A DNA stretch of 64,000 bases from Anaerovoracaceae bacterium (GTDB lineage: Bacteria > Bacillota > Clostridia > Peptostreptococcales > Anaerovoracaceae), in the NCBI GenBank assembly GCA_045112795.1, contig JBGUIG010000017.1, positions 18,323-82,322 on the forward strand, written 5' to 3'. The notes under the pieces are model-generated. The model did no database searches, was not told the origin of the DNA, and was given only the letters and a program-made list of their open reading frames with translations. Position 1 is the stretch's first letter, and every line of letters begins with the position of its first letter. Positions 39,565-62,284 of this stretch are shown here, piece by piece. Made by a program: the position numbers and the translations under genes.

Positions 39565-41979
39565 TCACTGCACCCTCTTGCGTTTGCACAAAGCATAAAG
39601 TATAGATGAAGCAACTGCAACGCAACCTGCTGCCGCAGTCGCAGCAGCTATTGGGGCTGCGTCACCCGGAATGCCTGTTATCGGCGCAAGATCTCTGCTG
39701 TTAATGAATGCTGCATTGTAAGTGTCTGCTGTTTCCATCGTGAATTCCCCGGTAGACAGCGCGGAATGTGTTCTGTGACTGTCCTCCTTTATTACAGTTC
39801 CGCTTTGACCTGTTATATGGTATTCAGGGAAGTGGTCGCTCTCTTCTTCGCTGATGGTGAATGCTGCTCCAGCAGGCAGTTTATCAAATAATATGCCTTT
39901 CTCATCCTTAAGCCTGAATCTGAGTGATGCTTTGCCCTCTGCATCAGCTCTGAAGTTATAAATGCCGGTGTCGTCCTCAGTACCCGAGTCAGCAGATCTG
40001 TCTTCCGATTTGATAGCTTTGGCTGAAGGTCTGGGTGCCTGTATTATTATCTCAGGTTTTCTGAATCCTTCTACAAGTACTGCTCCGTTGTTGGCAGCGC
40101 CGTATGTCATATTCGGTTCAAGGCCGGAGAAATCCACAGTAAAACTGAATTCCTTGGTTAAATCTCCGAGATTGCCCCTTACATTTTTGGTTATCCTAAG
40201 CGACGACAAAATCTCCGTCTCGGTGCTGCTGCCGTTGCATGTATTGACAACTGACGTTTTGCCCGATGCCTTATATGCATCCCAGTTGACCCTTGCCTTG
40301 TATTTGATCACCATAGATGGAGCCCCGCCGTTCGCAGCTTCAGAATTGAATTTATAAACCAGACCTGTGTCATCCGCTTTGACCTTAGTATATGTACCGC
40401 CTGACACAGTTACCTCAGGCTCTCCTTCGAGCATAAGAAGTCCGTTAGCCATATCATCATGAATCTCATATGTGCCCGCAGGTGCTCCCGGATTCAGTTC
40501 ATCCACCCTGATCTCATAATTGATAACGCTCTCATCGTATACATCAAGGAATTGAGTACCTGATGTCTTTTGCAGAGTGTAATCAGGCTGCTGCTCGTAT
40601 TCCGCCTCTATTGTATAGAATCCGGAATCCTTGGCGATCAGAACCTGTCCGTTACGGATGTCTCTTTTGGGCAGCGGATACTTGTTCAGTCTCTCAAATG
40701 TATATGTTCCTCCGTTTATCTTCTGATCATCTGTCAGTGTCTGTTCTACTCCGTCCACTTTGAGTGATTTCATATACCAGCCTTCTGCAGGCTTGTAATT
40801 GTAACCATATGATGAGTTCATCAGATGAGTATTCGCAATCCACGTGTCCACTCCTGACTTGACATTGTTGTCCCCCAGGACTGCGTCTGCTGCGCCGGGA
40901 TTAATTCTCTTGGCTTTGACTGCGACAGTAGGCTGTCCGCCAATCGTTGTACCCATTCCGTCATGGCCTGAAGCACTGCCCGCATGCGACCCTGTCCAGT
41001 AAAAGCTGAAGCCCTGAGGCTGCACAGCTGCAACAAATCCGGACCAAAGCGTGTTAAAGTCACAATCTGACGGATTGAATTTTTTCTCGAAAGCATCTAT
41101 CTTGGCACCATCTACCTTGATTCTGGTATTCGCGCCTGACATCTTCGAATTAACAAGGAGTGTATTCGCAAGGTCATTAGTTGACGGAGCCAGCACAGCA
41201 TTTCCTATCCAACCGCTGACGAGCTCAACACCCTCTGCATAGGTTCCATCGCCTTTTTCTGTCGGGGTTGCACTGCTTCTGATCGTTCTATCCATAATAT
41301 CCAGATCCTTGAATTCGACCAGCATTGTAGGATAATCCGAGGATATCGGTGTCATTGTGCCCTTGTTCACCACTTTCATGGTCACTTTGTATTTGCTGCC
41401 TATACTGGCACCTGAATTGATACCTCTGTCCGCATTGCCATTCTTCTCAGCATATGTCGTCCTTGGCGGCATTGATCCCAGCATGCCCCAGCCTCCGGCA
41501 ACAACCAGCTGCAACGTCGTGTTGTTATTTATTTTCGTTGTTCTGCTTGCTCCAAGTGCAACCTTGACATCACTCAGGGTCAATAGAATATCGCACACTG
41601 TTCCGTCAGATAACACTGCACCATCAGGAAACCTCAGCGTTACATCCGGGAGTGTATTCACCCTGAGAGAGGCATTGGCATCATTGGTGGTATTGCCTGT
41701 TCCGAATGAGAACTTGCCTGTCCACACCAGATTGCGTCTGAAGTAGTCTGCAGATCCGACATATCCATCCTGTAATGAATAGCCGGAGCCCGATACTATC
41801 GCAGCATGTGCAAAATTAAGATCCTTGATCTGTACGTAGTTGACCGGTAGCGTGTCGTACTGATTACCTGTGCCGTTGTCCCGCACAATAGGTACATTCT
41901 GTGCGTACGGTCTGACCTGCCACATATTCACAAGAACCAGCACTGACAGGATGAGCATCAATATTTTTCTTTTTTTCAT
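39565..41979 (-). CDS. wall-anchored protein, putative pilus ancillary or tip subunit
   Basis: Signal peptide MKKRKILMLILSVLVLVNMW. The C-terminal third has the pilin-type block ITKNVRGNLGDLTKEFSFTV, which is shared with the backbone pilin. Sorting signal: LAPITGIPGD, then a hydrophobic stretch, then KRKRVQ. The N-terminal ~550 aa have no motif I recognise. Confidence 0.7.
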   Translation of the reverse strand: MKKRKILMLILSVLVLVNMWQVRPYAQNVPIVRDNGTGNQYDTLPVNYVQIKDLNFAHAAIVSGSGYSLQDGYVGSADYFRRNLVWTGKFSFGTGNTTNDANASLRVNTLPDVTLRFPDGAVLSDGTVCDILLTLSDVKVALGASRTTKINNNTTLQLVVAGGWGMLGSMPPRTTYAEKNGNADRGINSGASIGSKYKVTMKVVNKGTMTPISSDYPTMLVEFKDLDIMDRTIRSSATPTEKGDGTYAEGVELVSGWIGNAVLAPSTNDLANTLLVNSKMSGANTRIKVDGAKIDAFEKKFNPSDCDFNTLWSGFVAAVQPQGFSFYWTGSHAGSASGHDGMGTTIGGQPTVAVKAKRINPGAADAVLGDNNVKSGVDTWIANTHLMNSSYGYNYKPAEGWYMKSLKVDGVEQTLTDDQKINGGTYTFERLNKYPLPKRDIRNGQVLIAKDSGFYTIEAEYEQQPDYTLQKTSGTQFLDVYDESVINYEIRVDELNPGAPAGTYEIHDDMANGLLMLEGEPEVTVSGGTYTKVKADDTGLVYKFNSEAANGGAPSMVIKYKARVNWDAYKASGKTSVVNTCNGSSTETEILSSLRITKNVRGNLGDLTKEFSFTVDFSGLEPNMTYGAANNGAVLVEGFRKPEIIIQAPRPSAKAIKSEDRSADSGTEDDTGIYNFRADAEGKASLRFRLKDEKGILFDKLPAGAAFTISEEESDHFPEYHITGQSGTVIKEDSHRTHSALSTGEFTMETADTYNAAFINSRDLAPITGIPGDAAPIAAATAAAGCVAVASSILYALCKRKRVQ

Positions 41980-41998: not shown

Positions 41999-42703
41999 CT
42001 ATAATTGCTGCGACTCATCGGTCGTCCCAAAGGCTGCACGTGCAGATAACGGTCTTGTTGACAGCATATTGTCCTCCGGAATCTTTCCGAATATGGCCGT
42101 TATTGTTGTATCGTCTCGAAAAGTTATTTCGGAAATCCCGGTTTCTGGTATTTCTCTGCCCTTTTTAACTCCCTCTGCGTCCTTGTCTGCGGTGATGGAT
42201 ATTATTTCATAGCCTGTATCAGGAATGCAGCTGAGTTTACCTTCCTTGTCTAATGACAAATCGCCGTGTCCTATTGTAACGAGCGTGAGTTCCGGGTCAT
42301 CTGACGGAGATGTCTCAGACGCCTCTTCAGCTTTGGCCTCCGCCTCAGGGTCCTTATCAGAAACTGCTGTATCATCTATTTCATTTTGTATGCTCTTACT
42401 GCAATCCTTGTCTTCACCAGCCTTATCTGCCTTCTCCACTGAAGCATCCGTCCTATCCGTCTCAGATAAAGCGGCATTGTCAGTTGTGGCCTCTTTCTCA
42501 CTGTCCTCTCCTTTCTCAGAGTCACAGTCTTCATCATTTGATTGATTATTATCTGAGTTTCCCGTTACTCCGGATGCCTGCTCTTCTGTGGCTGCAGGCA
42601 GTTCCTGCGTGTCTGAGGCTGCATCCGCAAATGCCGGCGCAGCAGCTATAAGCGCTATCAGCAGCAATAGGCTGATCAGCTGTATTCTGTGTACTAATTT
42701 CAT
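41999..42703 (-). CDS. secreted acidic protein without a wall anchor
   Basis: Signal peptide ending APAFADA, then an Asp/Glu/Ser-rich low-complexity half, then a ~90-aa C-terminal beta-like module (IPDTGYEIISITADKD). No sorting signal. ATGA overlap with the upstream small-pilin gene. Confidence 0.6.
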   Translation of the reverse strand: MKLVHRIQLISLLLLIALIAAAPAFADAASDTQELPAATEEQASGVTGNSDNNQSNDEDCDSEKGEDSEKEATTDNAALSETDRTDASVEKADKAGEDKDCSKSIQNEIDDTAVSDKDPEAEAKAEEASETSPSDDPELTLVTIGHGDLSLDKEGKLSCIPDTGYEIISITADKDAEGVKKGREIPETGISEITFRDDTTITAIFGKIPEDNMLSTRPLSARAAFGTTDESQQL

Positions 42704-43371
42704 TCAGCCACCCCCTTTCTGCTTCTTTCTGCCCGTGATAACCTGCCTGCTGCTGACGCCACAAGAATAACAGCCATGAGTGCAAGCGCCCCTGCGCCTG
42801 TAATCATCCATCTGAGAGCAGCTTTTCTGAACTCCTGATCACCCGTTTTGGGTGTGCTTCGCTGCAATGGAGCCTCGTACACATCTGTATAAGTGATACC
42901 GTCCACCTTTTCACCATCCTCATTCCAGATCACAGTTTCGGTAATTCCGTCATTGAATTTGGCAACCATCACTGTAAATACAGAATCATCTGCATCCAGC
43001 CTGTCATAGTTTTTCTGAGCCCTGCTGACGGTGTAGTAATATGCTCCGGGATATTCAAAGGTGATGCTCCCGAAATCCGGTGATTCGCTGCCCGAAACGG
43101 TCACGCTCCGGGTTCTCCCGTTTGATCCTGCAGGCATTGGCGTATTGTCACCACTTGCTGTGAGGATGAATTCAAATCTGTCATCTCCTGTATATTTACC
43201 TCCTGTTATTTCATGTTTAACTGGGATGCTGACTGTCGCTGAAGGTATCGTTTTGCCGTTATCTCCGCTGATGTCCGCATATACTGCACCTTCAGATGTC
43301 AGTAAAGGACCCAGCATGACTACTGCAGTCAGCACCAGAGCTAATGCATATTTTCTGATTTCTCTGTGCAT
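42700..43371 (-). CDS. small pilin-like wall-anchored protein (single Spy0128/FctA-type isopeptide domain)
   Basis: Signal peptide, then RFEFILTASGDNTPMPAGS...ITFEYPGAYYYTVSR...DDSVFTVMV, the pattern of the pilin isopeptide-linkage domain. Sorting signal: TPKTGD, TM segment, basic tail. Confidence 0.7.
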   Translation of the reverse strand: MHREIRKYALALVLTAVVMLGPLLTSEGAVYADISGDNGKTIPSATVSIPVKHEITGGKYTGDDRFEFILTASGDNTPMPAGSNGRTRSVTVSGSESPDFGSITFEYPGAYYYTVSRAQKNYDRLDADDSVFTVMVAKFNDGITETVIWNEDGEKVDGITYTDVYEAPLQRSTPKTGDQEFRKAALRWMITGAGALALMAVILVASAAGRLSRAERSRKGVAE

Positions 43372-43410: not shown

Positions 43411-44052
43411 CTAAATCTGTCTTCGCCTTAATACAGCTATAATCCTGCCGCATATATTCTTACGGCTTATCTGCCCGTACACCCGGCTATCCTCTGATTC
43501 TCCTCTGTTGTCCCCCAGGATGAAAAAGCATTCTTCACCGACTGTAACGGGCAGAATTTCCTGTTCTGCCGCATAAGTCCGGTCATATATACCGGCAGAA
43601 GGTGACGGCGGGAGATATATGCCGTTAAAAGTCAGCTGCATATCTCCCGTTGAACTGATCAGGGTCCCTTCTGATGCGGCAATTCTCCCTGTGTGGATTT
43701 CTCCGTCTGCTGTATACACGCAGGCTTCGGTATTCACCAGGTCAGATGCCCTGTAGTAAAAAATGATATCGCCGTCCTTAATGGCCGGATACATGCTGTT
43801 TCCGTGCTGAACAGTAACACCGAAGAAAAACCTGAATATTACAAAGAGAAACAATATTAACACTGCTGTTTCCGCTGCGAGTCCGGTCAGTGCTGACCTG
43901 TAACTTGCCCGTTCTGCCGATTCATCAGTCCTGAGTTCTGCTTCACCGATGCCTTCTTCTACTGAGTTTCTCCGTGGTTCAGACTTGTCTGATGTGCTCC
44001 GAGACTCCGCCTCGATTGCATAACTGTTACTTGCCTTTTTCCTGTGCAGCAT
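43411..44052 (-). CDS. signal peptidase I paralog (SipA/LepA-like, pilus-associated)
   Basis: Box B GNSMYPAI (Ser present), box C GDIIFYY and box E FILGDNRGESEDSR are all found. Box D reads HTGRIAASEGT where canonical enzymes have (Y/V)KR(I/V)IGLPGD, so the general-base Lys position is Gly. The gene has a long polar N-terminal extension and overlaps the sortase gene by 26 nt. Confidence 0.8.
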   Translation of the reverse strand: MLHRKKASNSYAIEAESRSTSDKSEPRRNSVEEGIGEAELRTDESAERASYRSALTGLAAETAVLILFLFVIFRFFFGVTVQHGNSMYPAIKDGDIIFYYRASDLVNTEACVYTADGEIHTGRIAASEGTLISSTGDMQLTFNGIYLPPSPSAGIYDRTYAAEQEILPVTVGEECFFILGDNRGESEDSRVYGQISRKNICGRIIAVLRRRQI

Positions 44053-44773
44053 AATATTCTCCTGTATATCTCGCCCTGCATAGCAGCACCGCTCTCAGAT
44101 CTGTCATATCCCCTGAGCAGGTCGAAAGAACTACCAGCTTGTCATCATCTCTGAATGTCACATCGTGCCTATGCACGCAGTCATCCAACTGATTCAAGGG
44201 CCTGCCTGCATCAGGTCCTGTATAGTACAAGTCTCCTTCATAGGGATTTACTATCTTGAACCCCGCTGCAGTCAGCTGATATACGCCGCCCGGTGTAATG
44301 AGTTCTCCCTGCAAATGCTCTTCGAAGAATTCCCGATCAGCGTATTCTGCCACATCACTGAACATAGCGCCTCGGGCCATGTGATGCCCATGTATGATGA
44401 TGTACTTGTCTGAAAAGTCCGGCGCGTTACCTGCGTCAAGAAAAATGCTGCCGCCCTGATAGAACTCTCCGTCAGGGTTCTTGCTGAGATATTCGAAGTT
44501 GTCCCGGCCATGGAGTAAGGGATGATTGATATGCGTACCGTCCATCCGGATCCACCCAGCGATGTCCTCATTTCTATTCCGGAGCGCTTCGAATCCGGGG
44601 AAGTCCTCACTGCCAAGCCCTGCAGCAGCCAGTGAATTCGCGTCCTGCACCAGAGCAGCAGTAAACAGACCTGCAAGTATCAGAAGCAGCAATTCCAGCC
44701 GCCTCAGCATGCTGCTCATTGTTTTTACAGCTTTCGTCCTCTTCCTATAATATGTTTTCATCAGATTATTCAT
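44027..44773 (-). CDS. srtB: class B sortase
   Basis: The NEDIAGWIRMDGTHINHPLL...GSIFLD block is typical of class B. Catalytic His in IIHGHHM, Cys in VLSTCS and a downstream Arg (DLRAVLLCR) are present, along with an N-terminal TM anchor. Confidence 0.85.
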   Translation of the reverse strand: MNNLMKTYYRKRTKAVKTMSSMLRRLELLLLILAGLFTAALVQDANSLAAAGLGSEDFPGFEALRNRNEDIAGWIRMDGTHINHPLLHGRDNFEYLSKNPDGEFYQGGSIFLDAGNAPDFSDKYIIIHGHHMARGAMFSDVAEYADREFFEEHLQGELITPGGVYQLTAAGFKIVNPYEGDLYYTGPDAGRPLNQLDDCVHRHDVTFRDDDKLVVLSTCSGDMTDLRAVLLCRARYTGEYYAAQEKGK

Positions 44774-44807: not shown

Positions 44808-46301
44808 TTATTCAAACTCGGCTGCCCCTCTCTTTCTCCTCATGACTATGAAGAATACGATGCCTGCGCCGATAAGTGCCGCCAGTACGTTCATGTGTTC
44901 GCCGTAGAACGGTATTCCTGTCGGTGTGAGAAGACTTCTGTGGTTAACAAAGTTGATGGTCACTGTTCCGTCATTAGTAGCTGCATTTGCTCTGCCTTCT
45001 ACATTGGAAACCGCGTCAACAGTCTCTTCGCTTGTAGATATCGCCAAATCACTGTGATTATTTGCCTTATCGGTCTCTACCATTACCCAGGTATCCGGCT
45101 TGGTCGACTCAGAATTGAATGAAGCTATGTGATCTGATTTCAGCTCTTCTACCTTGTATTTCGATGTTGCAGGCAAAGCATTAAATACCATCAGTTCATC
45201 ATCAGCGAGTTTGATGCGGAATGTCGCATTGCCGTCAGAATCTGAAGTGAATGATTTTGCGGTGCTGTCGACTGTTCCTTTGCCCCCTGTGAGAGCTTCG
45301 ATCTCGGCTGTTGCTGAAGTGGTCTTCTTATCTTCTTTGCCTTCTGCATCAATATTGGTTGTGTACTGCTTATTCTTCTCAAGTCCGGTAAGGGTCACTG
45401 TGTACTCGAATTCCTTGGTTACATCACCGAGATTACCCGTTACGTTGTTAGTAACTACTACATCGTGTGTAGTCTGGTCATTGAAGAATCTGTATGCTTC
45501 CAGCTTGTCAGGGCCTACAGGGTTTCCTGTCTGTGGATCGTTGCCGGGCTCATCAGGTGTCTTGCCTACCTTGGCCAGGTTGTCATAATTATTCTCAGTT
45601 GCTGCAACATTATTGTTGTCAGTTGTGTTCTGGATGTCTGACAGATCAGGCTCATGTGTTGTCGACGGACTGTTTCTGTAAGATGTTATGTCATGTACAT
45701 ATACTCCCGGGATCGTATTGCCGCTGTTGTCTGTGTTGTTGCAGACATATACGACTACATAGTAGCTGTTGTTATCGTATGCCATTCCCGGGATATTGCC
45801 TGGATCTGATGATGTCTCGGTGATTTTGTACATGTAGTATCCGGCTTTATCAAACTTAATCTTCACAGGTGTGAATCTGTATTTCTGTGTTGCTGTATCG
45901 GCAACATTAGTATTGGCATCTCCCGAAAAGTCACCGATCTGTATGGAGGCAATACCATTACCGGCATCAGTAACTGCAACCTTGTGGTGATTATCTGAAA
46001 CCGCAGTCGGAAGAGGCATCTGCGCAATCGGTATAGTCTTGCCGCTTTCCGCAGTGCTGACATTCGCGTTATCCCACGCTTTGACTGCTTCCATTTTCAA
46101 GTTAAAGTCCGTTACGGTCGGGAACTTATTCGCCTGGGATACAGTCAGGACTTTGCCCGCGTATATTGTTGCTGTATCGGATGATACGTTCTGAATAGGG
46201 TCCCTGAGTGACACTGCCGCAGCAAAAGCCGGAACCGACATCGACAGCGTAAGCGCCAGAGCAGCTGCCGTTACAGCAATCTTTCTAATAAATGATTTCA
46301 T
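44808..46301 (-). CDS. major (backbone) pilin candidate, two isopeptide-type domains
   Basis: Start MKSFIRKIAVTAAALALTLSMSVPAFA with AAGGAG 8 nt upstream; the longer ORF to 46385 is probably spurious. YMYKITETSSDPGNIPGMAYDNNSYYVVVYV and VTNNVTGNLGDVTKEFEYTVTL are pilin blocks. Sorting signal: LLTPTGIPFY, TM segment, RRKRG. Confidence 0.8.
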   Translation of the reverse strand: MKSFIRKIAVTAAALALTLSMSVPAFAAAVSLRDPIQNVSSDTATIYAGKVLTVSQANKFPTVTDFNLKMEAVKAWDNANVSTAESGKTIPIAQMPLPTAVSDNHHKVAVTDAGNGIASIQIGDFSGDANTNVADTATQKYRFTPVKIKFDKAGYYMYKITETSSDPGNIPGMAYDNNSYYVVVYVCNNTDNSGNTIPGVYVHDITSYRNSPSTTHEPDLSDIQNTTDNNNVAATENNYDNLAKVGKTPDEPGNDPQTGNPVGPDKLEAYRFFNDQTTHDVVVTNNVTGNLGDVTKEFEYTVTLTGLEKNKQYTTNIDAEGKEDKKTTSATAEIEALTGGKGTVDSTAKSFTSDSDGNATFRIKLADDELMVFNALPATSKYKVEELKSDHIASFNSESTKPDTWVMVETDKANNHSDLAISTSEETVDAVSNVEGRANAATNDGTVTINFVNHRSLLTPTGIPFYGEHMNVLAALIGAGIVFFIVMRRKRGAAEFE

Positions 46302-46526
46302 CGAAAATAACTCCTTTCTGATTGTCTTTCTCGGATAGTGTGTGCATCTGTTAACAGGTGAGCCTATTCTGGCACACATACACAATTCGGAGTCATGCCG
46401 ATGTGATTATGGCATTCGTGTTGATTGACATTATGAAATTGCTGCAACTCATGACTTCACCGCAGCAGCTTCGGAGTTATCCACATGAGGGATACTGTTA
46501 CACTATTTCTGGTTATTTAAGGCACA

Positions 46527-46572
46527 ACAAAACAGGAAGACGGAATTAAGTTATTCCGTCTTCCTGTTTTTA
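46527..46572 (-). terminator. rho-independent terminator after the 2174-aa adhesin gene
   Basis: 16-bp perfect stem AACAGGAAGACGGAAT / ATTCCGTCTTCCTGTT (46531-46568), flanked by A and T runs. Confidence 0.8.
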
Positions 46573-46620
46573 GTTAGCCATTATCTGTTGCCAGATAATC
46601 GGGAAAGTCTGTTGTAAGGA

Positions 46621-53612: not shown

Positions 53613-53638
53613 CAAAAAGAGGGAGTATAGCTCCCTCT
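53613..53638 (-). terminator. rho-independent terminator after the regulator gene
   Basis: On the minus strand, AGAGGGAG-ctata-CTCCCTCT hairpin followed by TTTTTG. Confidence 0.75.
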
Positions 53639-53693
53639 AATCTAATCAGTTTACATGGATTAAAAGATTCCGGGCAGCGAAATGCGCAACATG

Positions 53694-54473
53694 CTACTTC
53701 TGCAGCTGGTACAGGCTTCCGCTTGTCATTTCTGCCCATGAATACTGGGCCATATATTCGCCTCTGAAACGGTCACGTTCTTTCTTATCACCCTCTAGGA
53801 AATCGTAATAATCACATGAAAGCTTCTCAACATTAACTGCCCATGTGTTCCATTGCTTTACAAGGATATCTGCAGCACCCACAGCATCCAGATCTTTTCT
53901 CAGGCTTGACATGATCATTCTGCACTGTGACTTGAGGTTCTTATCGACTACCCTGTTTTCCCAAAGCGTATTGCATATCTCATTAATAGTACATGCAGCA
54001 CCTCTGCGGTCCACAAGATATGCAAGAGCTTCTTTGCCGAGTGACCGGCTGAAGCGAATAGCAACACCATCGGACATCGCTTCAAAGTTTCCGAAGCACT
54101 GTATTCTGAGATTTTTTGATGGCTGAACAGGATATCTGAGATTCTGCAGTTCCGCTAAAACCTTCCCTTCTTCAACCGGCTCAAGAATAAATCCACTGGC
54201 ATGCACACGGAATGCTTCAGCTGCATTATGCATATCATCAGAAATAAATATCCAGTTAATACCTGCTGGCAGCTCATCCGAATCTGCAGTGAAAGCAAAA
54301 CTGTCAGGCGAAGCATCAAGCCATACAACATCAGGCTTTGACGCACCAATCGAAGCTCTTAGTTCATCAAAACTATCTACGAAACTGAATTGACCACGCG
54401 GATCAAAATATTGAGACGAACCCTCAATAATCCTGGCCACTTCTATATTTGAGACAAAACAAACCGATATCAT
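53694..54473 (-). CDS. orphan response-regulator-like transcription factor: atypical receiver plus SARP/OmpR-type winged helix
   Basis: The wHTH block is LRIQCFGNFEAMSDGVAIRFSRSLGKEALAYLVDRRGAACTINEICNTLWEN...LRKDL. The N-terminal receiver-like fold keeps the putative acceptor Asp (VVWLDA), but lacks the acidic pair (CFVSN instead of DD/DE) and has Glu where the conserved Lys sits (GFILEP). The start is either ATG 54473 (GGGGG 8 nt upstream) or GTG 54488. Confidence 0.75.
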   Translation of the reverse strand: MISVCFVSNIEVARIIEGSSQYFDPRGQFSFVDSFDELRASIGASKPDVVWLDASPDSFAFTADSDELPAGINWIFISDDMHNAAEAFRVHASGFILEPVEEGKVLAELQNLRYPVQPSKNLRIQCFGNFEAMSDGVAIRFSRSLGKEALAYLVDRRGAACTINEICNTLWENRVVDKNLKSQCRMIMSSLRKDLDAVGAADILVKQWNTWAVNVEKLSCDYYDFLEGDKKERDRFRGEYMAQYSWAEMTSGSLYQLQK

Positions 54474-54563
54474 TGTCTGTACCCCCACATCAATGATTTG
54501 CCCCTCACAAATAAGAAGTTATCTCCCCTTATAACATATGATACCCTATTATTGAACAATTAG

Positions 54564-54590
54564 CGCAACAAATGCGCACCTATTGTTGCG
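54564..54590 (-). promoter_or_regulatory. CGCAAC-N5-CGCACC direct repeat plus inverted GTTGCG upstream of the regulator gene
   Basis: CGCAAC 54564-54569 and CGCACC 54575-54580 (11-bp spacing), plus GTTGCG 54585-54590 (inverted). On the minus strand the cluster lies just upstream of a candidate TTCAAT-17-TGTTATAAG promoter. Confidence 0.35.
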
Positions 54591-54671
54591 TTTGTTCCTC
54601 GCTTCGGAACAGACCGCCAAACTTTACCCCATGTTCATGTGATCTATCGCAATTTGACGATTTTTTGCACA

Positions 54672-54722
54672 ATAAAACAGGAAGACGAAACCCTGATTGA
54701 TTCCGTCTTCCTGTTTTGTTTT
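54672..54722 (-). terminator. rho-independent terminator after the 2484-aa adhesin gene
   Basis: AAAACAGGAAGACG (54675-54688) pairs with CGTCTTCCTGTTTT (54704-54717). The stem sequence is the same as in the 46531-46568 terminator. Confidence 0.8.
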
Positions 54723-54829
54723 GTCGATGCTCAGATAATCGTCATTCGTTAATCGATCAGATTACCTGATCTCGAACGCCTCCGTTGCTTTAGAGGTTTG
54801 ATTTTCTGTTAGAAGAAAGTCTGTATAGA

Positions 54830-57800
54830 CTATTCCTCGTCGCTTCTTCTTCTGCGGATGAAGAGTGCACCGAAGAGTGCTACGACTGATGCGAAGAATC
54901 CGCCAACCATTCCTGGGATGTTAGTGTCATCGCCAGTCTTGACGCCTGTTGTAGGCTCAGCTTCAGGTTCAGCTACTGGAACTGTCTTCTCGCCAGGTAC
55001 AACAGTTGGGTATGGATGGTTAGGATCGTCAGTTGTTCCGGTTGCTGTTGCAATGTTAGTAACTGATCCGTTCTTAGCATCTTCTTCTGTTACTGTGTAC
55101 TCGCAGTTGAATGTCTGGCTCTTGTCTGGTGCAAGGCTCTCAATGTTCCATGCATCGCCTGTCAGATCATCCTTAACCTCGATATCCTTAACAGTCAGGT
55201 TACCGTCGTTAGTTACTGTGATTTCATAAGTAACAGTCTCGCCTACCTCGTAGCTCTTGCCATTTGCAGGAGTGCTTGTTGTTTCCTTAACCACAGTCAG
55301 ATGTGGGTTGCTCTCATCTGTAGGATCTTCAGTAGTTCCCGGTACGATCTCAGGCTTTGGTGCCTCAGGGTCCTTAGGTTCTGCTGTTGCAGTTGCCTCG
55401 TTCTTAACGACGCCTGCAATGATATCCTTCTCAGTTACTGTGTGCTCTGTTGTGAATGTCTTGGATTCGCCAGGAGCAAGCTCTTCTACTGACCAAGCAT
55501 CACCAGTCAGTTCGTCAGTAACTTCGATGTTCTTGAGAGTCATGTTGCCATCGTTAGTAGCCTTGACTTCGTAAGTGATTGTTTCGCCAAGAGCATATGT
55601 CTTGCCGTTAGCAGGTGTACTTGTAGTCTTCTTGTCTATTGTCAGATGGCTCTTAGGATCTTCTACGTCTACCTTGTCTTCCGGCTCATATGGCTTGTCT
55701 ACGCCACTGAACTCAACGGTAGCCTTGTTGTTGAACTCTCCTGCGAGGATGTCAGCTTCTGTTACTACGTATTCTGCAGTTACAGTTACCTTAGCGCCTG
55801 GCTCAACATCCTTGAATTCGCTCTCAGATGTGATTGTAACTCCCGGCTGCTCAGTAACAGTGATGTCCTTCTTCTCTGCGTAGATATTAGTTACCTCGAT
55901 AGTGAATACTACTTTTTCGCCCAGCTTGTATTCCTTATCTTCGTGCTTCTTAGTAGCTACCTTGTCGACAGGAACGTCTTCATCAGTTACTTCAAGAGTT
56001 CCATACTTAACAGTGATGTTGTAGTTGTCCGCATTAGTAGCCTTTGTTGCTTTGTAGGTTGTTTCATCATCTGCATCAACACCTGTAAGCTTAGCAAACA
56101 GTTTTCTGGTTGGTGTGAACAGCTTATAAGTGAATGTGTTATCTGATGTTCCTACATATGTCTGAGATCCAGTTACATCGATTGATGCAAGACCTTCGCC
56201 ATCTACGAAGCCATCGATTGTCATTTCATCGTGCTTAGTAAGCGGTGTTCCGTCGTATACCTTCTTTGCAGAAGCAGATTCGATTGTTACATCGATAGGC
56301 TCGATCTTGAGGCTTCCGTCGTTTACAACGAACTCAACGTTTGTGAAGTTCTTGGAGATGTTCTCGAAGTCTCCTGCCTTGAGTCCCATTGGGTAGCTGT
56401 CAACATCGTCTCCGGACTTCTTAACGTCTGTGCCCTTTGCTGTAGCATCGCCGCTGAATGTGAAGTCTTCCTCAGTGTACAGCTCGTTGTCGATGCTTAC
56501 ATCGTAGCCTTCTACCTTCTGCTCAGCACCGTTGTAGTCAACGTCATCCTTGTGACCTGTGATTGTAACAGTAACCTTGTCAGTTACAGGTGTTACAGTC
56601 AGAGTTCCTACGGACTGAGTGATGTCATAGTTGTCAGCCTTTGTTCCTTCATTCAGAGTGTAGCTGAAGGAGTTCTGGCTTGAGCCTACATCTGTCTGTG
56701 TTCCGGTTACATCGTACTTAGCGCCTTCGCCGTCTGCGAATCCGTCGCCGCCAACTGTTACCTCATCGTTAGTAAGAGCCTTACCGTCATATACCTTTTC
56801 ATCTGTAGCAGATGTCAGGGTGACTGTTCTCTTGCTGATCTCGAGTGTTCCGTCAACGATCTGGAATGTAACCTTAGTGAAGTTCTTGTTGTTGTTTGTG
56901 AAGTCTGTCGGCTTCAGTTCCATATCATAGCTGCCTGCGTCTGTTCCCTTTACAGTAGCGTCGCCGCTGAATGTGAAGTCAGACTCTTTGTACAGGTCGC
57001 TGCTGATGCTTGTTACTTTGTAGCCTGTTACAGTCTTCTCTGTTCCGTCGTACTTCTCGCTGCCGCTGTTCTCTGTGATAACAACAACTACTTCCTTCTC
57101 GTCTGCAGTTACGGTCAGAGTACCTTCAACCTGAGTGATTTCATAGTTGTCAGCCTTTGTGCCCTTGTTCAGAGTATAAGTGAATGTGTTCTTGCTTGAA
57201 CCAGCGTCAGTCTGAGTACCAGTTACATCGTATGTTGCGCCTTCGCCTTCGACGAATCCGTCACCAGTCTCTGTAACCTTGTCATTAGTAAGAGCCTTGC
57301 CGTCATATGTCTTGCTGTCTGTTGCAGAAGTCATTGTGACTGTTCTCTTGCTGATTTCAAGTGTTCCGTCAACGATTACGAACTCTACGTTGGAGAAGTT
57401 CTTGCTTATGTTGGTGAAGTCTTCCGGTGTGAGCTCCATGTCGTATGAACCGGCATCTGTGCCCTTTACAGTAGCGTCACCATCGAATGTGAAGTCATTC
57501 TCAGTGTACAGTGGGTTGCTGATCTCAACTGTGTAGCCCTCAACGGTCTTCTCAGTTCCATCATACTTAGCTGTACCGCTGTTCTCTGTGATTGTTACAG
57601 TAACCTTGTCAGTTACAGGTGTAACTTCCAGAGTGCCTTCTGTCTTAGTAATTGTGTAGTTTGCAGCCTTAGTGCCTTCGTTCAGAGTGTAGTCGAACTT
57701 GTTTGCACTTGAGCCAACATTGGTCTGAGTACCAGTTACATCGTATGTAGCGCCTTCGCCTGTTGCGAATCCGTCGCCACCGACTGTTACCTCATCATTT

Positions 57801-60800
57801 GTAAGAGCTGTTCCGTCATAGACCTTTTCGTCATCAGCTGATGTCAGAGTGACTGTTCTCTTGCTGATCTCGAGTGTTCCGTCAACGATTACGAACTCTA
57901 CGTTTTTGAAATTCTTGTTTGTGTTAGTGAAGTCTTCTGGCTTGAGCTCCATTGGATATGAGCCTGCATCAGTTCCCTTTACAGTGTCATTTCCACTGAA
58001 TGTGAAGTCATCCTCAGTGTAAAGCTCATTGTCGATTGAAACAGTGTAGCCTGTTGCAGTCTTCTCTGTTCCATCGTACTTCTCGCTTCCGCTGTTCTCA
58101 GTAATTGTTACTGTGACCTTATCAGTGAGCTCAGTTACTGTCAGAGTTCCTTCAGTCTTAGTGATTGTGTAGTTATCAGCCTTAGTGCCGTTGTTCAGAG
58201 TGTATGTGAACTTATTAGCACTTGAGCCAACTTCTGTCTGTGATCCGGTTACATCATATGTAGCGCCTTCGCCTGATACGAAACCGTCGCCACCGACTGT
58301 GACTTCATCATTTGTAAGAGCTGTTCCGTCATATACCTTACTGTCTGTAGCAGATGTCAGGGTAACAGATCTCTTAGTAATTGTAAGCTTGAGAGTTCCG
58401 TCAGTTACTCCGCCATCTTCAGGAAGTACATACTTATCAGCTGCAGAGCTTGCAATCGTAATTGTTCCTGTTACAGAACCATTATACGTACCAACATCTG
58501 TACCCTTTGCAGAATCAACGCTAGGAGTAAATGTAACTCCATCAGGCAGCTTTTCAACTTCCTGGTCGCCTACAAAGTATTTAACAGTGTATTCATCGTT
58601 GCTCTGCTGTTTGCCATTATACTTCTGAGTATCTTCAGATCCGGTAATCTCTACTCTTACCTCAGCAGCCCATACAGCAAACATTGCATGATATGGAGTC
58701 TTCTCGTCAGCAGCTACCTCTGTAACAACATCTCCGTCGGCACTGCCAAGATGGAACTGGCTGCCATCATAGTACAGGTACATGTTCTGATCTGCATTGT
58801 CCTGTGTCCAGTTGCTCTGGTTTGCTTCCCAAGCCTTTGATGATTCAGGATCATTTCCAGCCGGAATACGAGCCCAGCCCTTGAACACATAACCTTCACG
58901 AGTCTGTGCCGGTTCAATATTTACAGCTTTATTGATTGCAAGATTATCATCCTTATGGAATGCCTCTGTGCCATCATTCTTGTACCAGTAAATATGTGTA
59001 GGTGTTGGTGTATCCTTAGGAGTATATTCTGCTCTGAGCTGTACAGTATACTTCTTAGTTACTTCAGGTTCATCTTCAGTTGGTGTAATATCCTCAACTT
59101 TAGCGTTTGCTCTGAGAACTTCGAATGTATCTCCAGGATATACGAACTGGTCAGTATCCTCAAATTTGGTTCCGTTCCATTTCTGAACTACCCAGTATAC
59201 AAACTGTTCATCTTCACTTGCAGGTGTAGATGCTCCCTGTGCAATAGCATTTGTCTTATCTTTGTAGAGAAGATCATCCTTTGGAGCTCCTGATCCACCA
59301 TTAGCATCGTATACCACATTGATACCCTTTGCGCCTGGAATCGTTGAACGCCACTTAGCATACAGGTCAAGGCTCTTTGTGATCCAGAAACGATCAGTAT
59401 CCTTGTTAACATTCTCTGTTACATTGCCATACTTATCAGTTTCTGTGGATCTTGACTTATCATAAGCCGTAACGCCAGGTGTGGAATCTGTAAGCGGATA
59501 TGCCTCAGAACTGAAGATTTTGGTACATCCTTCATCATAGTACCATCCCATCAGTTCATAATCATCTCTGGTAGCAGGAGTCAACTGAACTTCTTCGCCA
59601 TATGATACACGGAAGGATGTTGCCTGATCTCCCATCTGATACGAGGTGTCAGATGTTGGTACATTCGGATGCAGGAATACACGGTACTCTACCTGTCTCC
59701 ATTTAGCATAAACTGTTATACCTTCCGGCATGTTTGTGAACGTATATGGCTGAGTGCAAGCATCATCTGCATACCAGCCTTCGAAGGCGAATGCATTAAA
59801 TTTAGGTTCGTAATAGTTTGCACCGCCTTTGTTGTAACTGGCAACGCTAGACTCGAAGTTAATCTTCTCAGCAACATGCAGCTGGCCTCTGTCATCCATG
59901 TCAGTAAGAACGTTGCCGTCACCGTCAACATATACTCCATCCATGAAGAGAATGTTGTATGTCAATGGAGCATAACGGATGTACAGATTAGTGTAATCGG
60001 TTACTGTTGCATAATAGCCAGAGCTATCTTTCTCACCAAGATTTGTCCAGTTTGTGCCATTCTTACTGTACTGTACTGCTTTGTATCCATTGTATTTATC
60101 AGAGATATAGAATGTACCACCATTACTAATATCTACAGTATTTGTAGCAGTCGTTGGGTATGTGCCATCTGCATTCTGCTTGTAGAAGTAGACATGGTTA
60201 TTTCCGTTTCCACCAAATCCATAGAATGTCTGGCTGGAACTGTCATCTGACAGCTTAAAAGCATCCAGGAATGTGGTACGTGTACCAGAACCTTCATATC
60301 CACTCCAAGTCTGTCGATATGATTCATACCACCAGCGATTGGTCGGCCATGTATAACCCTGTGATGCAAGAGTCTGACCATAGAGACCTGTCATAGTGGT
60401 CTGAGTTGCCCAGCTGTTTCCGTTACGATACTGGAAAGTCAGTGTTACGAGATTACGATCATAGTAAACATTGACTACAGAGCTGCCTGTTGCATCAATA
60501 GTAACATTTGTATCATATTTATTAAGATGGAATCCCGGGTAACTCTTAGCTACTCCATTTACAGATGCATATCTACCGTCTCCGGAACCTGTAGCTGTAA
60601 CAGTATTAATAGTGCTGCCAACATTTCCGGAAAGTGTAACAGATTCGCCAAAATCATAAGTTTTAGCGCTGTCTGCTGCATCCTTAGCATCCTTTACGCT
60701 CTGCTTCCAGATGATAACAGTATAATTTGCTGTCTCAACTTCTTTCCATTTAGCGTAGAGGTAAGTCTTTGTATCAATTCCGGATCCGAATGTAAACTTA

Positions 60801-62284
60801 CTGCCTGTCGGGTCGCCACCTACTTCGCTAGGTTCACCAGTATACCATCCGTCGAATTCATATCCGAGTCTGGATGGATCAGCCGGCTCTTCTGTCACCT
60901 TACCTGTTTCAATAAACTGTGCAACAGTATAGGTTGCTCCCTTACCGTTCTCTTTGAAGATGAGGTAATTGCCCTTAGGTGCCTTTGCTGTAAGTGTTAC
61001 ATTACCATTAACCTTGAGCTTGGTACCTACCTGCTGTGCCTCGTTTGAAGGTATTGGTTTTCCGTCAACATCAGTAGCAGCGCCTGAAACAAACCAGCCC
61101 TGGAATTGCTGGATATCCGGGTTCTCAGGCTCGTATGTCATATTGATCTCAAAATCTTCTGTTGATCCGTTAACACCAAGAACTGTTACTGAATCGATGA
61201 TTGTTCCTGTTTCACTCTTATAAGTGACAGTATATGCATCGAGAATCACAGCATGAACATAATACTTGTCGCCTTCAGTTATTGAAAGGCCTTCGAAGTA
61301 CTTACGTACTTCTTCGATGTTCATTGTTTTTGTCTTAGTGTCGTATGATGCTGTTGCGTCCTTGCTGACAATCCAGCCTTTGAAAATCTTTCCTGCAGCT
61401 AATTCGCCAACGCCTGGATCATAGATGATCTCTTCCAGCTCGTCTAATGTGTCAGCGTTCTTTACATATACTGTAGCTCTCTCAGTGTCTCCACTCTTGA
61501 AGATAACTTCTGCACGAGCGTTTCCAGAAGTATCACCTTCTTCAACAACAGCATATACCGAGAACTGATCTGTTACGACTTTAGCGATGCCTGCTTTGTT
61601 GACTGTAGCGTCGTCAACAACTTCAGCAGGGCCATTGTCTGGAATGTGGACTACTGCATTTGCATTGTCCAGTCCGGATGCGTTCAGATAGACATGTACA
61701 GGAACCTTAGGCTCAACATCTTCTCCGTCTTTGACGAAGGTGATGTCAACGGCCTTGAATCCGGTGACTTCGCCATCAACTGCATCCTTAACAGCCTGCT
61801 CAACAGCCTTTGTGTTAGCAGGTGTTACGACCATTTCAGTGCCTTCCGGGAGAGCACCTTCTGGCGCTTTAACGAGAACCTTTACTCCGCCCTTGTCGGC
61901 ATTAAAGGTCTGCGCCGGGAACGATACTTCCTTCTCAGGCTCTGTGGTCTCCTCTGCAGGAGTTTCTTCAGCAGGTTCTTCAACCTGTTGTTCTTCCTCT
62001 GCAGGGGCCTGTTCCTCTTCGACTGCAGGTTCCTCCTCAACTGGTGCAGGTGCAGGTTCAGCAACCTCTTCCTGTACCGGGGCAGGTTCTTCAGTCGTCA
62101 CTTCGTCCTGTGGGGCCGGAGCTTCGGTGTTGGCAGCGTTGTCAACAACCTCTTCAGCGACTGGCTGCTGTGGTGCTTCATTTTCAGCATATGCGATCAG
62201 ATTGACCGGCATATACGTGATCACCATTGCAACCGACAGGGCAAAGGCAAGGAATCTTTTCAGATACTTGTGATTGTCTTTCAT
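54830..62284 (-). CDS. giant wall-anchored adhesin: Listeria-Bacteroides (Flg_new) repeats, ~172-aa YDG repeats, DUF11-like repeats
   Basis: Signal peptide, then a Pro/Glu/Ala-rich spacer. Several G(W/Y)...LYAKW(K/R) repeats (for example YEFDGWYTGEPSEV...TYLYAKWKE). Five units of ISKRTVTLTSA.D.KVYDG.ALTNDEVTVGGDGF.... Three Y.(L/V)GE.(I/V).(F/Y).(I/V)..TN.(G/Y)N(M/L)T.K.I.V.D DUF11-type modules. Sorting signal: GVKTGDD, TM segment, RRRRSDEE. RBS AAGGGGAAAG. Confidence 0.85.
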   Translation of the reverse strand: MKDNHKYLKRFLAFALSVAMVITYMPVNLIAYAENEAPQQPVAEEVVDNAANTEAPAPQDEVTTEEPAPVQEEVAEPAPAPVEEEPAVEEEQAPAEEEQQVEEPAEETPAEETTEPEKEVSFPAQTFNADKGGVKVLVKAPEGALPEGTEMVVTPANTKAVEQAVKDAVDGEVTGFKAVDITFVKDGEDVEPKVPVHVYLNASGLDNANAVVHIPDNGPAEVVDDATVNKAGIAKVVTDQFSVYAVVEEGDTSGNARAEVIFKSGDTERATVYVKNADTLDELEEIIYDPGVGELAAGKIFKGWIVSKDATASYDTKTKTMNIEEVRKYFEGLSITEGDKYYVHAVILDAYTVTYKSETGTIIDSVTVLGVNGSTEDFEINMTYEPENPDIQQFQGWFVSGAATDVDGKPIPSNEAQQVGTKLKVNGNVTLTAKAPKGNYLIFKENGKGATYTVAQFIETGKVTEEPADPSRLGYEFDGWYTGEPSEVGGDPTGSKFTFGSGIDTKTYLYAKWKEVETANYTVIIWKQSVKDAKDAADSAKTYDFGESVTLSGNVGSTINTVTATGSGDGRYASVNGVAKSYPGFHLNKYDTNVTIDATGSSVVNVYYDRNLVTLTFQYRNGNSWATQTTMTGLYGQTLASQGYTWPTNRWWYESYRQTWSGYEGSGTRTTFLDAFKLSDDSSSQTFYGFGGNGNNHVYFYKQNADGTYPTTATNTVDISNGGTFYISDKYNGYKAVQYSKNGTNWTNLGEKDSSGYYATVTDYTNLYIRYAPLTYNILFMDGVYVDGDGNVLTDMDDRGQLHVAEKINFESSVASYNKGGANYYEPKFNAFAFEGWYADDACTQPYTFTNMPEGITVYAKWRQVEYRVFLHPNVPTSDTSYQMGDQATSFRVSYGEEVQLTPATRDDYELMGWYYDEGCTKIFSSEAYPLTDSTPGVTAYDKSRSTETDKYGNVTENVNKDTDRFWITKSLDLYAKWRSTIPGAKGINVVYDANGGSGAPKDDLLYKDKTNAIAQGASTPASEDEQFVYWVVQKWNGTKFEDTDQFVYPGDTFEVLRANAKVEDITPTEDEPEVTKKYTVQLRAEYTPKDTPTPTHIYWYKNDGTEAFHKDDNLAINKAVNIEPAQTREGYVFKGWARIPAGNDPESSKAWEANQSNWTQDNADQNMYLYYDGSQFHLGSADGDVVTEVAADEKTPYHAMFAVWAAEVRVEITGSEDTQKYNGKQQSNDEYTVKYFVGDQEVEKLPDGVTFTPSVDSAKGTDVGTYNGSVTGTITIASSAADKYVLPEDGGVTDGTLKLTITKRSVTLTSATDSKVYDGTALTNDEVTVGGDGFVSGEGATYDVTGSQTEVGSSANKFTYTLNNGTKADNYTITKTEGTLTVTELTDKVTVTITENSGSEKYDGTEKTATGYTVSIDNELYTEDDFTFSGNDTVKGTDAGSYPMELKPEDFTNTNKNFKNVEFVIVDGTLEISKRTVTLTSADDEKVYDGTALTNDEVTVGGDGFATGEGATYDVTGTQTNVGSSANKFDYTLNEGTKAANYTITKTEGTLEVTPVTDKVTVTITENSGTAKYDGTEKTVEGYTVEISNPLYTENDFTFDGDATVKGTDAGSYDMELTPEDFTNISKNFSNVEFVIVDGTLEISKRTVTMTSATDSKTYDGKALTNDKVTETGDGFVEGEGATYDVTGTQTDAGSSKNTFTYTLNKGTKADNYEITQVEGTLTVTADEKEVVVVITENSGSEKYDGTEKTVTGYKVTSISSDLYKESDFTFSGDATVKGTDAGSYDMELKPTDFTNNNKNFTKVTFQIVDGTLEISKRTVTLTSATDEKVYDGKALTNDEVTVGGDGFADGEGAKYDVTGTQTDVGSSQNSFSYTLNEGTKADNYDITQSVGTLTVTPVTDKVTVTITGHKDDVDYNGAEQKVEGYDVSIDNELYTEEDFTFSGDATAKGTDVKKSGDDVDSYPMGLKAGDFENISKNFTNVEFVVNDGSLKIEPIDVTIESASAKKVYDGTPLTKHDEMTIDGFVDGEGLASIDVTGSQTYVGTSDNTFTYKLFTPTRKLFAKLTGVDADDETTYKATKATNADNYNITVKYGTLEVTDEDVPVDKVATKKHEDKEYKLGEKVVFTIEVTNIYAEKKDITVTEQPGVTITSESEFKDVEPGAKVTVTAEYVVTEADILAGEFNNKATVEFSGVDKPYEPEDKVDVEDPKSHLTIDKKTTSTPANGKTYALGETITYEVKATNDGNMTLKNIEVTDELTGDAWSVEELAPGESKTFTTEHTVTEKDIIAGVVKNEATATAEPKDPEAPKPEIVPGTTEDPTDESNPHLTVVKETTSTPANGKSYEVGETVTYEITVTNDGNLTVKDIEVKDDLTGDAWNIESLAPDKSQTFNCEYTVTEEDAKNGSVTNIATATGTTDDPNHPYPTVVPGEKTVPVAEPEAEPTTGVKTGDDTNIPGMVGGFFASVVALFGALFIRRRRSDEE
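56100..58400. repeat. about 4.5 tandem ~515-bp coding repeats inside the 2484-aa adhesin gene
   Basis: The landmark (c/t)tc(g/a)agtgttccgtcaacgat recurs at 56840, 57356 and 57869 (spacings 516 and 513 nt). Diverged copies lie near 56305 and 58385. Confidence 0.85.

Follow-up and report, generated by a model that had tools for sequence, protein, structure and literature searches.

What kind of surface structure is encoded by the nine genes that lie between the ylxM-ffh operon and a drug/metabolite transporter (DMT) gene in a genome assigned to the family Anaerovoracaceae, and do these genes form a single element? The question concerns a stretch of 64,000 nucleotides (nt) of GenBank assembly GCA_045112795.1 (contig JBGUIG010000017.1, positions 18,323 to 82,322), which we call the window and whose own numbering is used throughout. 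A preliminary description, made from the letters of the window, had pointed to a locus of about 23 kb that resembles the FCT pilus islands of Streptococcus pyogenes. In our reading, the operon at positions 39565-46301 is intact and most probably encodes a pilus that a sortase polymerises covalently, of the type known from streptococci as FCT-2/3/4 and PI-2, here in a species of Mogibacterium. This reading draws on the observed gene order, folds, protein families, conserved residues, two classes of sorting signals, and conservation across species.

With respect to the host, the YlxM and TrmD proteins of the window are identical to those of a metagenome-assembled genome (MAG) that is named 'Mogibacterium sp.' at NCBI, and related contigs come from ruminant-gut samples. 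The operon sortase gave no match when its exact sequence was looked up. Judged by these two proteins, the host is a Mogibacterium species, a member of the class Clostridia that is reported alongside Anaerovoracaceae MAGs. The genome is therefore clostridial, as had been said, in the sense of the class and not of the genus Clostridium.

The six-gene operon and the proteins it encodes

The nine open reading frames (ORFs) all lie on the minus strand, as the preliminary description had it, and their coordinates proved exact; they are bounded by ylxM-ffh and by an EamA/DMT gene, both flanks being identified by Pfam. Six of the genes form the compact operon (6.7 kb) that was also described there, with gaps of at most 39 nt or overlaps: the spacing is 34, -26, 39, -4 and 19 nt. 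In order of transcription, the operon encodes a predicted backbone pilin, a sortase, a SipA-like protein, a candidate basal pilin, an acidic protein and an anchored protein of 804 amino acids (aa). The coordinates below are those of the ORF list, except that the backbone protein is counted from its ATG, and the terminator is added at the end.

44808-46301, minus strand: predicted backbone pilin gene (497 aa counted from the ATG, with AGGAG 8 nt 5' of it)
44027-44773, minus strand: class B sortase gene (248 aa)
43411-44052, minus strand: SipA/LepA-type gene (213 aa)
42700-43371, minus strand: candidate basal pilin gene (223 aa)
41999-42703, minus strand: gene for a secreted acidic protein (234 aa)
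39565-41979, minus strand: gene for an anchored protein (804 aa)
39448-39471, minus strand: intrinsic terminator at the end of the operon, 3' of the 804-aa gene (-21.8 kcal/mol, z -5.3)

In the backbone protein, a Sec signal peptide precedes an N-domain that resembles Spy0128 and a C-domain of the DUF7601 family, followed by the signal LLTPTG-IP, a transmembrane segment and an RRKRG tail. Pfam reports DUF7601 (9e-9) and no other family, and neither a YPK nor a YPKN motif is found in the sequence. An AlphaFold2 model calculated from 55 homologues has a predicted local distance difference test score (pLDDT) of 89. The top 25 Foldseek matches of this model are all Spy0128, T-antigens or PitB (E 6e-17 to 3e-12); for the Spy0128 structures 3gle and 3b2m, E is 6e-17 to 2e-16, with a probability of 1.00 and a target-normalised template modelling (TM) score of about 0.6. 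In addition, the family profile matches Spy0128 (3b2m) at 2.4e-13. To transfer residues from Spy0128 to the backbone, we used a chain offset anchored on five known residues. In this mapping, the N-domain triad K50/E162/N274 corresponds to K36/E117/N168 of Spy0128 and is invariant in the 55 homologues, and in the C-domain E386 and N453, which are conserved, correspond to E258 and N303; five of the six known bond residues of Spy0128 fall on invariant or near-invariant columns. As far as model and profile can tell, the 497-aa protein is a shaft pilin of the Spy0128 fold.

The sortase has an N-terminal membrane anchor and the catalytic residues H128-H131, C219 and R227. All of its 15 sequence matches in the PDB are class B sortases, and no class C sortase is among them. 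The best match is 4y4q (2.4e-36), followed by Spy0129 of S. pyogenes (3psq, 1.2e-24), and the SrtB proteins of Staphylococcus aureus, Bacillus anthracis and Clostridioides difficile rank behind these two. We take 4y4q to be SrtG1 of Streptococcus pneumoniae. By this ranking, the operon sortase is closest to the pilus-polymerising class B type represented by Spy0129.

The SipA-like protein matches Peptidase_S26 in Pfam (1.9e-13), and its best matches in the PDB are S. pyogenes SipA (4n31, 6.6e-16) and LepA (4k8w, 2.1e-13). The catalytic dyad is incomplete: Ser86 is present (codon 43795-43797), and the general-base Lys is replaced by Gly122. At these two positions, each of the 28 related loci has N-D-M and G/A-R-I (one locus having Ala at the base); Asp thus stands at the nucleophile site in the 28 loci, and Ser is found there only in this species, in the window and in a sister strain. 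In S. pyogenes SipA, Asp48 and Gly85 replace the Ser/Lys dyad (PMC4049620). Since the Asp/Gly signature is common to S. pyogenes SipA and the related loci, it argues that the SipA-type proteins considered here share their descent with streptococcal SipA rather than having decayed independently.

The 223-aa protein consists of a single FctA/Ig-like domain (Pfam FctA 2.4e-8, 35.2 bits against a cut-off of 22.1), and a profile of 16 homologues matches FctB3 (8k6t, 2.7e-8) and FctB (3klq, 3.5e-8). Like FctB, it has no isopeptide triad, with Arg at the Glu site and Asp at the Asn site. Its conserved Lys155 directly precedes the last strand, in the region that holds K161 in Spy0128 and the linking Lys in FctB (PMC7900414). 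We regard this protein as a candidate for an FctB-like basal (anchor) pilin.

The 234-aa protein, whose gene start overlaps the basal pilin gene by 4 nt, contains a signal peptide, an acidic low-complexity region (26% Asp+Glu, net charge -34) and a small C-terminal domain, and it carries no wall anchor. At the same position, four related loci (L002, L005, L008 and L013; loci of other genomes carry the prefix L) encode secreted proteins that have a signal peptide and an Asp+Glu content of 25-41%. In its C-terminal domain, the 234-aa protein matches the counterpart in L013 (BLASTP 2e-8), and a C-terminal motif like A-[RV]-F-[DE]-G is common to the acidic protein and its counterparts. L012 encodes a fusion in which an acidic region is joined to a DUF7601 domain that carries a pilus-type signal. 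As a separate observation, four loci whose divergent modules lie at the ylxM site encode a secreted protein of 325-359 aa after the basal pilin (L028:13639-14616, L029:12329-13348, L030:13338-14351 and L037:10481-11560); these proteins have an acidic N-region and a conserved Cys-containing C-terminal domain with a motif like YTGTCAxQGV.

The last protein of the operon, of 804 aa, combines a signal peptide, a head of about 420 aa, a middle Ig-like domain, a DUF7601 domain that resembles the C-domain of Spy0128, and the signal LAPITG-IP. DUF7601 (2.9e-12) and RrgB_K2N_iso_D2 (5e-6) are detected, the C-terminal domain contains a complete triad (K598/E711/N760), and the profile of the protein matches the Spy0128 C-domain at 4e-10. 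The family NF033396 (pilus_ancill_1) scores 21.8 bits against a cut-off of 600 bits and matches the C-terminal domain only. With the AlphaFold2 model (pLDDT 82), Foldseek finds the N-domain of Sgo0707, BcpA, PitA and Spy0128, the whole-chain search being dominated by Ig-like stalk domains. The head belongs to no Pfam family and is lineage-restricted, with 60 relatives in 1.84 billion cluster representatives. Its top match is the adhesin head in the N-domain of Sgo0707; because this likeness is weak (target TM 0.41), we propose no ligand. The protein is a candidate tip adhesin, and its tip role rests on the sorting motif and the position in the operon.

Taken together, the combination to which the preliminary description had drawn attention, namely Spy0128-type pilins encoded together with a class B sortase and with a SipA-like peptidase, in a different gene order and with extra components, is borne out by fold, PDB and profile matches. 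Each of the three proteins singled out there behaves as expected: the 497-aa protein folds like Spy0128, the 223-aa protein lies above the Pfam FctA threshold and its family profile matches FctB, and the sortase is closest to Spy0129. The expected Lys-Asn/Asp triads were found only in part: they are present in the backbone N-domain (K50/E162/N274) and in the 804-aa protein (K598/E711/N760), but not in the 223-aa protein or in the backbone C-domain, where Asn285 takes the place of the Lys.

Sorting signals and the proposed assembly pathway

The sorting signals fall into two classes. The first, L(T/A)P(T/I)TGIP, is found in the backbone pilin (LLTPTG-IP) and the 804-aa protein (LAPITG-IP). The second, xKTGD, is found in the basal pilin (S-TPKTG-DQ) and in two giant proteins encoded upstream of the operon, of 2174 aa (GAKTG-DD) and 2484 aa (GVKTG-DD). 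By a crude regular-expression count across the related loci, the canonical xPxTG occurs in 3 of 55 large pilins versus 12 of 14 small FctB-like pilins, and the motif is followed by Asp in 0 of the 55 versus 13 of the 14. The same division is seen in S. pyogenes, where SrtC1/2 acts on FctA and Cpa (EVPTG and VVPTG, or VPPTG and QVPTG), and the LPXTG of FctB is left to SrtA. The LTPTG of the backbone studied here has its Pro placed as in EVPTG and VVPTG of FctA/Cpa and in VTPTG of PitB. From the two signal classes we infer that the operon sortase polymerises tip and shaft, and that a housekeeping sortase anchors the basal pilin and the giant adhesins.

The assembly pathway that we propose would run as follows. 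All of the pilins would be exported by the Sec system and retained in the membrane by their C-terminal anchors. The membrane-anchored class B sortase would cut L(T/A)P(T/I)TG after Thr in the 804-aa adhesin and the 497-aa backbone, where it is Thr461, and would join the Thr to an N-domain Lys (K266 or K244) of the next backbone subunit, so that the adhesin would come to lie at the tip and the backbone would form the shaft. The SipA-like protein, presumably unable to act as a normal Ser/Lys signal peptidase, may serve as a polymerisation cofactor or chaperone, as in S. pyogenes. The FctB-like pilin would join via Lys155 and end growth, and its TPKTGD would be used by a housekeeping sortase encoded elsewhere, which would fix the fibre to peptidoglycan. 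Self-formed Lys-Asn bonds would stabilise the backbone N-domain (K50-N274, with E162 catalysing) and the C-terminal domain of the adhesin (K598-N760, with E711).

Several points weigh against the pilus reading. The sortase does not reach the equivalog cut-off of the class B family TIGR03064 (1.9e-37, 128.8 bits against 153.75) or the cut-off of Pfam Sortase (23.9 bits against 26.6), and no housekeeping sortase is encoded within the window. The Ser retained in the SipA-like protein of this species may mean residual or altered activity. The linking lysine of the backbone is ambiguous: K266 corresponds in position to K161, and K244, the other candidate, shows a conservation of at least 90%. In the backbone C-domain, the equivalent of Spy0128 K179 is Asn285 (codon 45447-45449), while the partners E386 and N453 are kept; Asn is also found at this position in all 24 homologues that are at least 50% identical, and Lys in 28 more distant ones. 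The C-domain isopeptide bond is thus probably absent in this lineage, or formed differently. In the 804-aa protein, neither family nor structure searches found a thioester (TQ/TED) or Cpa head match. The acidic protein matches no Pfam or NCBIfam family and gave nothing usable in the PDB sequence search, and it has no role in the pathway above. Finally, polymerisation, subunit order and SipA dependence, together with every catalytic step and the role of each subunit, are carried over by homology from streptococci. Three details are unexplained, namely Asn285 in the backbone, the Ser86 of the SipA-like protein, and the acidic protein with its conserved position. As possible replacements for the missing Lys, K309 and K322 were also considered; both occur preferentially in the Asn285 clade, which may simply reflect phylogeny, and we do not claim them.

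Even so, the components and their arrangement, as predicted from sequences and models, place the Mogibacterium operon with the SipA-dependent class B sortase pili (FCT-2/3/4 and PI-2); it is neither a strict FCT region nor a class C pilus operon. With S. pyogenes FCT-2/3/4 (Cpa, SipA/LepA, FctA/Spy0128, SrtC1/Spy0129, FctB), it shares a two-domain backbone of the Spy0128 fold, a class B enzyme as the sole sortase of the operon, a SipA paralogue that has lost its dyad (Gly at the base, and Asp at the nucleophile in nearly all relatives), a small FctB-like basal pilin with no isopeptide triad and a canonical-type signal, non-canonical signals with Pro in the X position in the backbone and the large adhesin, and a variable locus between conserved flanks. 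However, the FCT order is cpa - sipA - fctA - srtC - fctB, whereas the order here is backbone - sortase - sipA - basal pilin - acidic protein - adhesin. The Mogibacterium backbone, of 497 aa, contains long insertions compared with the FCT backbone of about 340 aa, and its C-domain lacks a Lys equivalent to K179; in the adhesin, no thioester domain is detected and the head is lineage-restricted; an extra conserved secreted acidic protein is encoded; and the host belongs to an anaerobic genus of Clostridia. Regulators of the RofA/Nra or MsmR kind and genes for fibronectin-binding proteins, which belong to a strict FCT region, are absent from the locus, and its regulator is of the SARP type.

PI-2 of S. 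pneumoniae and the mitis group (PitA, SipA, PitB, SrtG1, SrtG2) has the xTPTG backbone motif in common with the window (PitB VTPTG, here LTPTG), and PitB and PitA are among the top structural matches. PI-2 assembly depends on SipA and a class B-like sortase, and by homology the same dependence would be expected in Mogibacterium. The Mogibacterium operon departs from PI-2 in having a single sortase instead of two and in encoding a basal pilin; its genes stand in another order, and sequence identity is only 12-17%. Class C pili (C. diphtheriae SpaA, L. rhamnosus SpaCBA, C. perfringens CppA) follow the same logic of tip, shaft and base, with Thr-Lys isopeptide joins and anchoring by the housekeeping sortase. 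The operon differs from them in that both a class C sortase and the YPKN motif are missing, that a SipA partner is present, and that the VWA protein, which is similar to the tip pilins of class C pili, is transcribed here as a unit of its own.

In the literature consulted, pili that depend on SipA and a class B sortase have been studied only in streptococci, where the reason for their need of SipA is an unresolved question (PMC7900414, PMC4049620). Our literature searches returned no description of such pili, whether by sortase class or by SipA, for Clostridia, Mogibacterium or Anaerovoracaceae. The operon widens the range of a known system beyond streptococci and is not a new kind of machine.

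Distribution and history of the locus

For the distribution scan, one genome was used per GTDB species. Relatives of the backbone pilin, with 32-67% identity, were found in 30 loci, most of which are Mogibacterium MAGs from goat and sheep intestine. Among the others are M. kristiansenii, represented by the cultured strain WCA-MUC-591-APC-4B with its related module L020, a MAG of Lentihominibacter, members of the Anaerovoracaceae, and small numbers of Oscillospiraceae and Acutalibacteraceae. All of the 30 species loci with enough sequence keep the order pilin - sortase - SipA, and the next gene usually encodes a small FctB-like pilin and/or an 800-900-aa DUF7601 protein. The 30 species-level loci, mostly from uncultured Mogibacterium of ruminant and human guts, make up a second, deeply diverged clade of such systems, that is, an independent set of co-evolved pilin/sortase/SipA triples that can show which features are essential. 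For example, the Asp/Gly 'dead' dyad is conserved across both clades and the Pro in the sorting motif is not, and the C-domain isopeptide Lys appears dispensable in half of the backbone family. The predicted pili are also candidates for a part in colonisation by this genus, which is common in the gut and mouth but has received little study.

A broader proposal, which we put forward as a tentative and rather doubtful one, is that the SipA/class B sortase pilus is an old, widespread machine of Firmicutes, to which the Mogibacterium branch added the acidic component, possibly as an assembly or surface-charge factor, and from which it dropped the isopeptide bond of the shaft C-domain. If so, the loss of this bond would give a mechanically different fibre.

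To consider the history of the window locus itself, the genes and terminators around the operon are needed.

62792-63685, minus strand: EamA/DMT transporter gene, opposite flank (EamA 7.6e-33)
54830-62284, minus strand: giant fibrillar adhesin gene (2484 aa; ORF list)
54674-54717, minus strand: intrinsic terminator 3' of the 2484-aa gene (-27.7 kcal/mol, z -8.3)
53694-54488, minus strand: regulator gene (264 aa; ORF list)
46621-53145, minus strand: giant fibrillar adhesin gene (2174 aa; ORF list)
46529-46570, minus strand: intrinsic terminator 3' of the 2174-aa gene (18-bp stem, -36.8 kcal/mol, z -10.95, then a T-run)
38758-39153, minus strand: ylxM (YlxM PF04297, 1.3e-24)
37386-38729, minus strand: ffh (SRP54, 1.2e-76)

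The 23 kb comprise four transcription units: the 2484-aa adhesin gene, the regulator gene, the 2174-aa adhesin gene and the six-gene operon. Strong hairpins 3' of both giant genes agree with the earlier statement that two independently terminated adhesin genes flank a regulator gene; in the folding, the hairpin 3' of the regulator gene is weaker than the other three. The strongest terminator, 3' of the 2174-aa gene, was missed by a consensus terminator scan and revealed by folding, and it sets that gene apart from the pilus operon.

The 3' ends of the two giant genes are a duplicated cassette that contains the coding region of the sorting signal and a terminator hairpin nearly identical in the two copies (46515-46545 versus 54660-54690, 84% identity). 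The repeat extends more widely over 46420-46720 versus 54630-54930, and the terminator of the 2484-aa gene falls in repeat family D16. The two cassettes are short direct repeats that flank an 8.2-kb strain-variable segment. In the sister strain (L001), whose flank DNA is 98.5% identical, window positions 46433-54641, with the regulator gene and the 2174-aa gene, are replaced by ISL3 and IS3 transposase genes (L001:2276-5893); the pilus operon is kept intact, its distal half being only 89% identical. A deletion in L001 by recombination between the duplicated terminator cassettes was considered and not adopted, because two insertion sequence (IS) elements lie at the junction.

The proposal that all 23 kb arrived recently as one accessory island must be weighed against these data, and we judge it unlikely. 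The content between ylxM and the DMT gene does differ between strains, IS elements are present at the site in the sister strain, and the closest modules, whose backbones are 57-67% identical, are found in other Mogibacterium species elsewhere on the chromosome, beside a Tad pilus cluster or ackA. The GC content of the 52-62 kb part is slightly lower (0.44-0.46 versus 0.47-0.50), but that of the pilus operon equals that of the flanks. Scans of the whole window found no tRNA gene and no Rfam family, the window part of the locus contains no transposase gene, and no integrase and no long boundary repeat are found at the locus; the four units are terminated separately. The preliminary description had likewise seen no integrase, transposase or tRNA, and this holds for the window; its statement that a direct-repeat boundary is lacking needs a correction, the duplicated cassette being a short direct repeat. 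In five of the 30 species loci, all from other Mogibacterium species (L028-L031 and L037), a divergent pilin-sortase-SipA-basal pilin module, with a backbone 33-36% identical, lies directly upstream of ylxM-ffh as in the window, with Ffh 86% identical and the downstream synteny conserved. This argues that the site is old and variable and not newly acquired. A long-standing variable surface-protein locus with replacement of modules, analogous to the FCT types, fits better. The accessory locus of about 23 kb that had been proposed does vary in content between strains, as the IS elements of L001 show, but it is not one unit; it is a 6.7-kb pilus operon plus three separately terminated units, and five species with modules at the same site argue against a recent island.

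Two observations on related modules may be added. In a Mogibacterium MAG (L002/L003:565-9945), the sortase-pilus module lies immediately downstream of a Tad/Flp-type pilus cluster (T2SSE, T2SSF, Flp1_like), which puts two pilus systems of different kinds side by side. In L005:3029-9951, two proteins are encoded upstream of the related module, one with collagen repeats and one of 668 aa that contains a TQ ester-bond domain; L007 has a 1379-aa version of the second.

Anchoring, the tip and the neighbouring units

A different reading, which we consider highly improbable, is that the class B sortase merely anchors individual proteins, as SrtB does in C. difficile and S. aureus, the 'pilins' being monomeric wall adhesins that form no polymer. 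Outside streptococci, class B sortases are best known for anchoring. The motif of C. difficile SrtB is (S/P)PxTG, which the basal TPKTG resembles. The C. difficile SrtB structures 4ux7 and 5gyj are among the matches of the operon sortase at about 1e-16 to 1e-17, but 4y4q and Spy0129 beat C. difficile SrtB by 8-20 orders of magnitude in E-value. In addition, the main substrate has the fold of the Spy0128 shaft pilin, and the sortase is strictly accompanied by a SipA-type protein with the Asp/Gly dyad loss, for which the literature consulted gives no role other than pilus polymerisation. The presence of two signal classes within one operon fits a division of labour between two sortases. These data favour a polymerised pilus.

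The 2174-aa protein has a VWA head with the metal ion-dependent adhesion site (MIDAS) motif DTSGS (residues 82-86), followed by DUF7604, DUF7601, 2 Cna_B and 9 FctA domains (Pfam FctA 6.9e-152 over 9 stretches, Cna_B 1.4e-38, VWA 3.4e-12). The 2484-aa protein contains Listeria-Bacteroides (Flg_new) repeats, five 171-aa repeats and 3 CLIPPER_2 (DUF7507)/DUF11 isopeptide domains (Pfam DUF7507 2.1e-43, DUF11 1.2e-9, Flg_new 3.1e-9). The five repeats are encoded in tandem as units of 513-534 nt (about 171 aa) at window positions 56100-58450, with 65-87% identity, and belong to no Pfam family. DUF7507 and DUF11 have been renamed CLIPPER_2 and CLIPPER and are isopeptide domains (PMC12617251). With the fibrillar adhesins described in the same work, which have CLIPPER/CLIPPER_2, FctA or Cna_B stalks, the two giant proteins share an adhesive head, a tandem stalk of isopeptide-type domains and a wall anchor; they are single polypeptides and not polymerised pilins, encoded as neighbours of the operon.

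That the 2174-aa protein might be the real tip adhesin, like RrgA, SpaC and GBS104, with the 804-aa protein accessory or separate and the unit larger than six genes, is the least probable of the readings considered, for although this protein has a VWA head with an intact MIDAS as known tip pilins do, nine stalk domains of the FctA family that it has in common with the pilins, and a gene that directly adjoins the operon in the same orientation, a very strong terminator lies between that gene and the operon, its GAKTGDD belongs to the basal/housekeeping class and not the backbone class, L001 has an intact operon and no 2174-aa gene, and BLASTP assigns no ORF of the 30 related loci to it, whereas a DUF7601 protein of about 800-900 aa follows most modules. 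The giant adhesins and the SARP-type regulator are neighbouring, separately transcribed units and not parts of the pilus.

The matches of the 264-aa regulator itself are weak (Trans_reg_C 0.014, MrkE receiver 0.0086, AfsR 0.14; sub-threshold). It has 1655 homologues in a family that is abundant in Mogibacterium, many of them with Pfam Response_reg, and these are named, for example, 'two-component SAPR family response regulator' (spelling of the source) or 'response regulator [Mogibacterium sp.]'. We describe it as a putative orphan response regulator of the SARP family, with a degenerate receiver and a winged-helix DNA-binding C-terminus; no kinase gene adjoins it. Elsewhere, on Mogibacterium contigs, homologues are encoded between giant Flg_new or CLIPPER_2 adhesin genes (L038:6234-16254, L039/L040:1847-12862), and in L039/L040, where the receiver of the regulator is intact, the next genes encode a 235-aa protein and a sensor with His_kinase/HATPase_c domains. 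Most likely, the regulator of the window controls the adjoining adhesin gene or genes.

Three features in other parts of the window were also recorded. At 14820-15794, a 324-aa ORF belongs to no Pfam family. At 13178-14611, long ORFs overlap on opposite strands (474 aa on the plus strand and 469 aa on the minus strand), the minus-strand ORF having no Pfam family. Finally, positions 2001-6000, which encode an ADP-ribosylglycohydrolase, a MATE transporter and an ABC ATPase, have a GC content of 0.56-0.57 compared with 0.45-0.50 elsewhere and may differ in origin.

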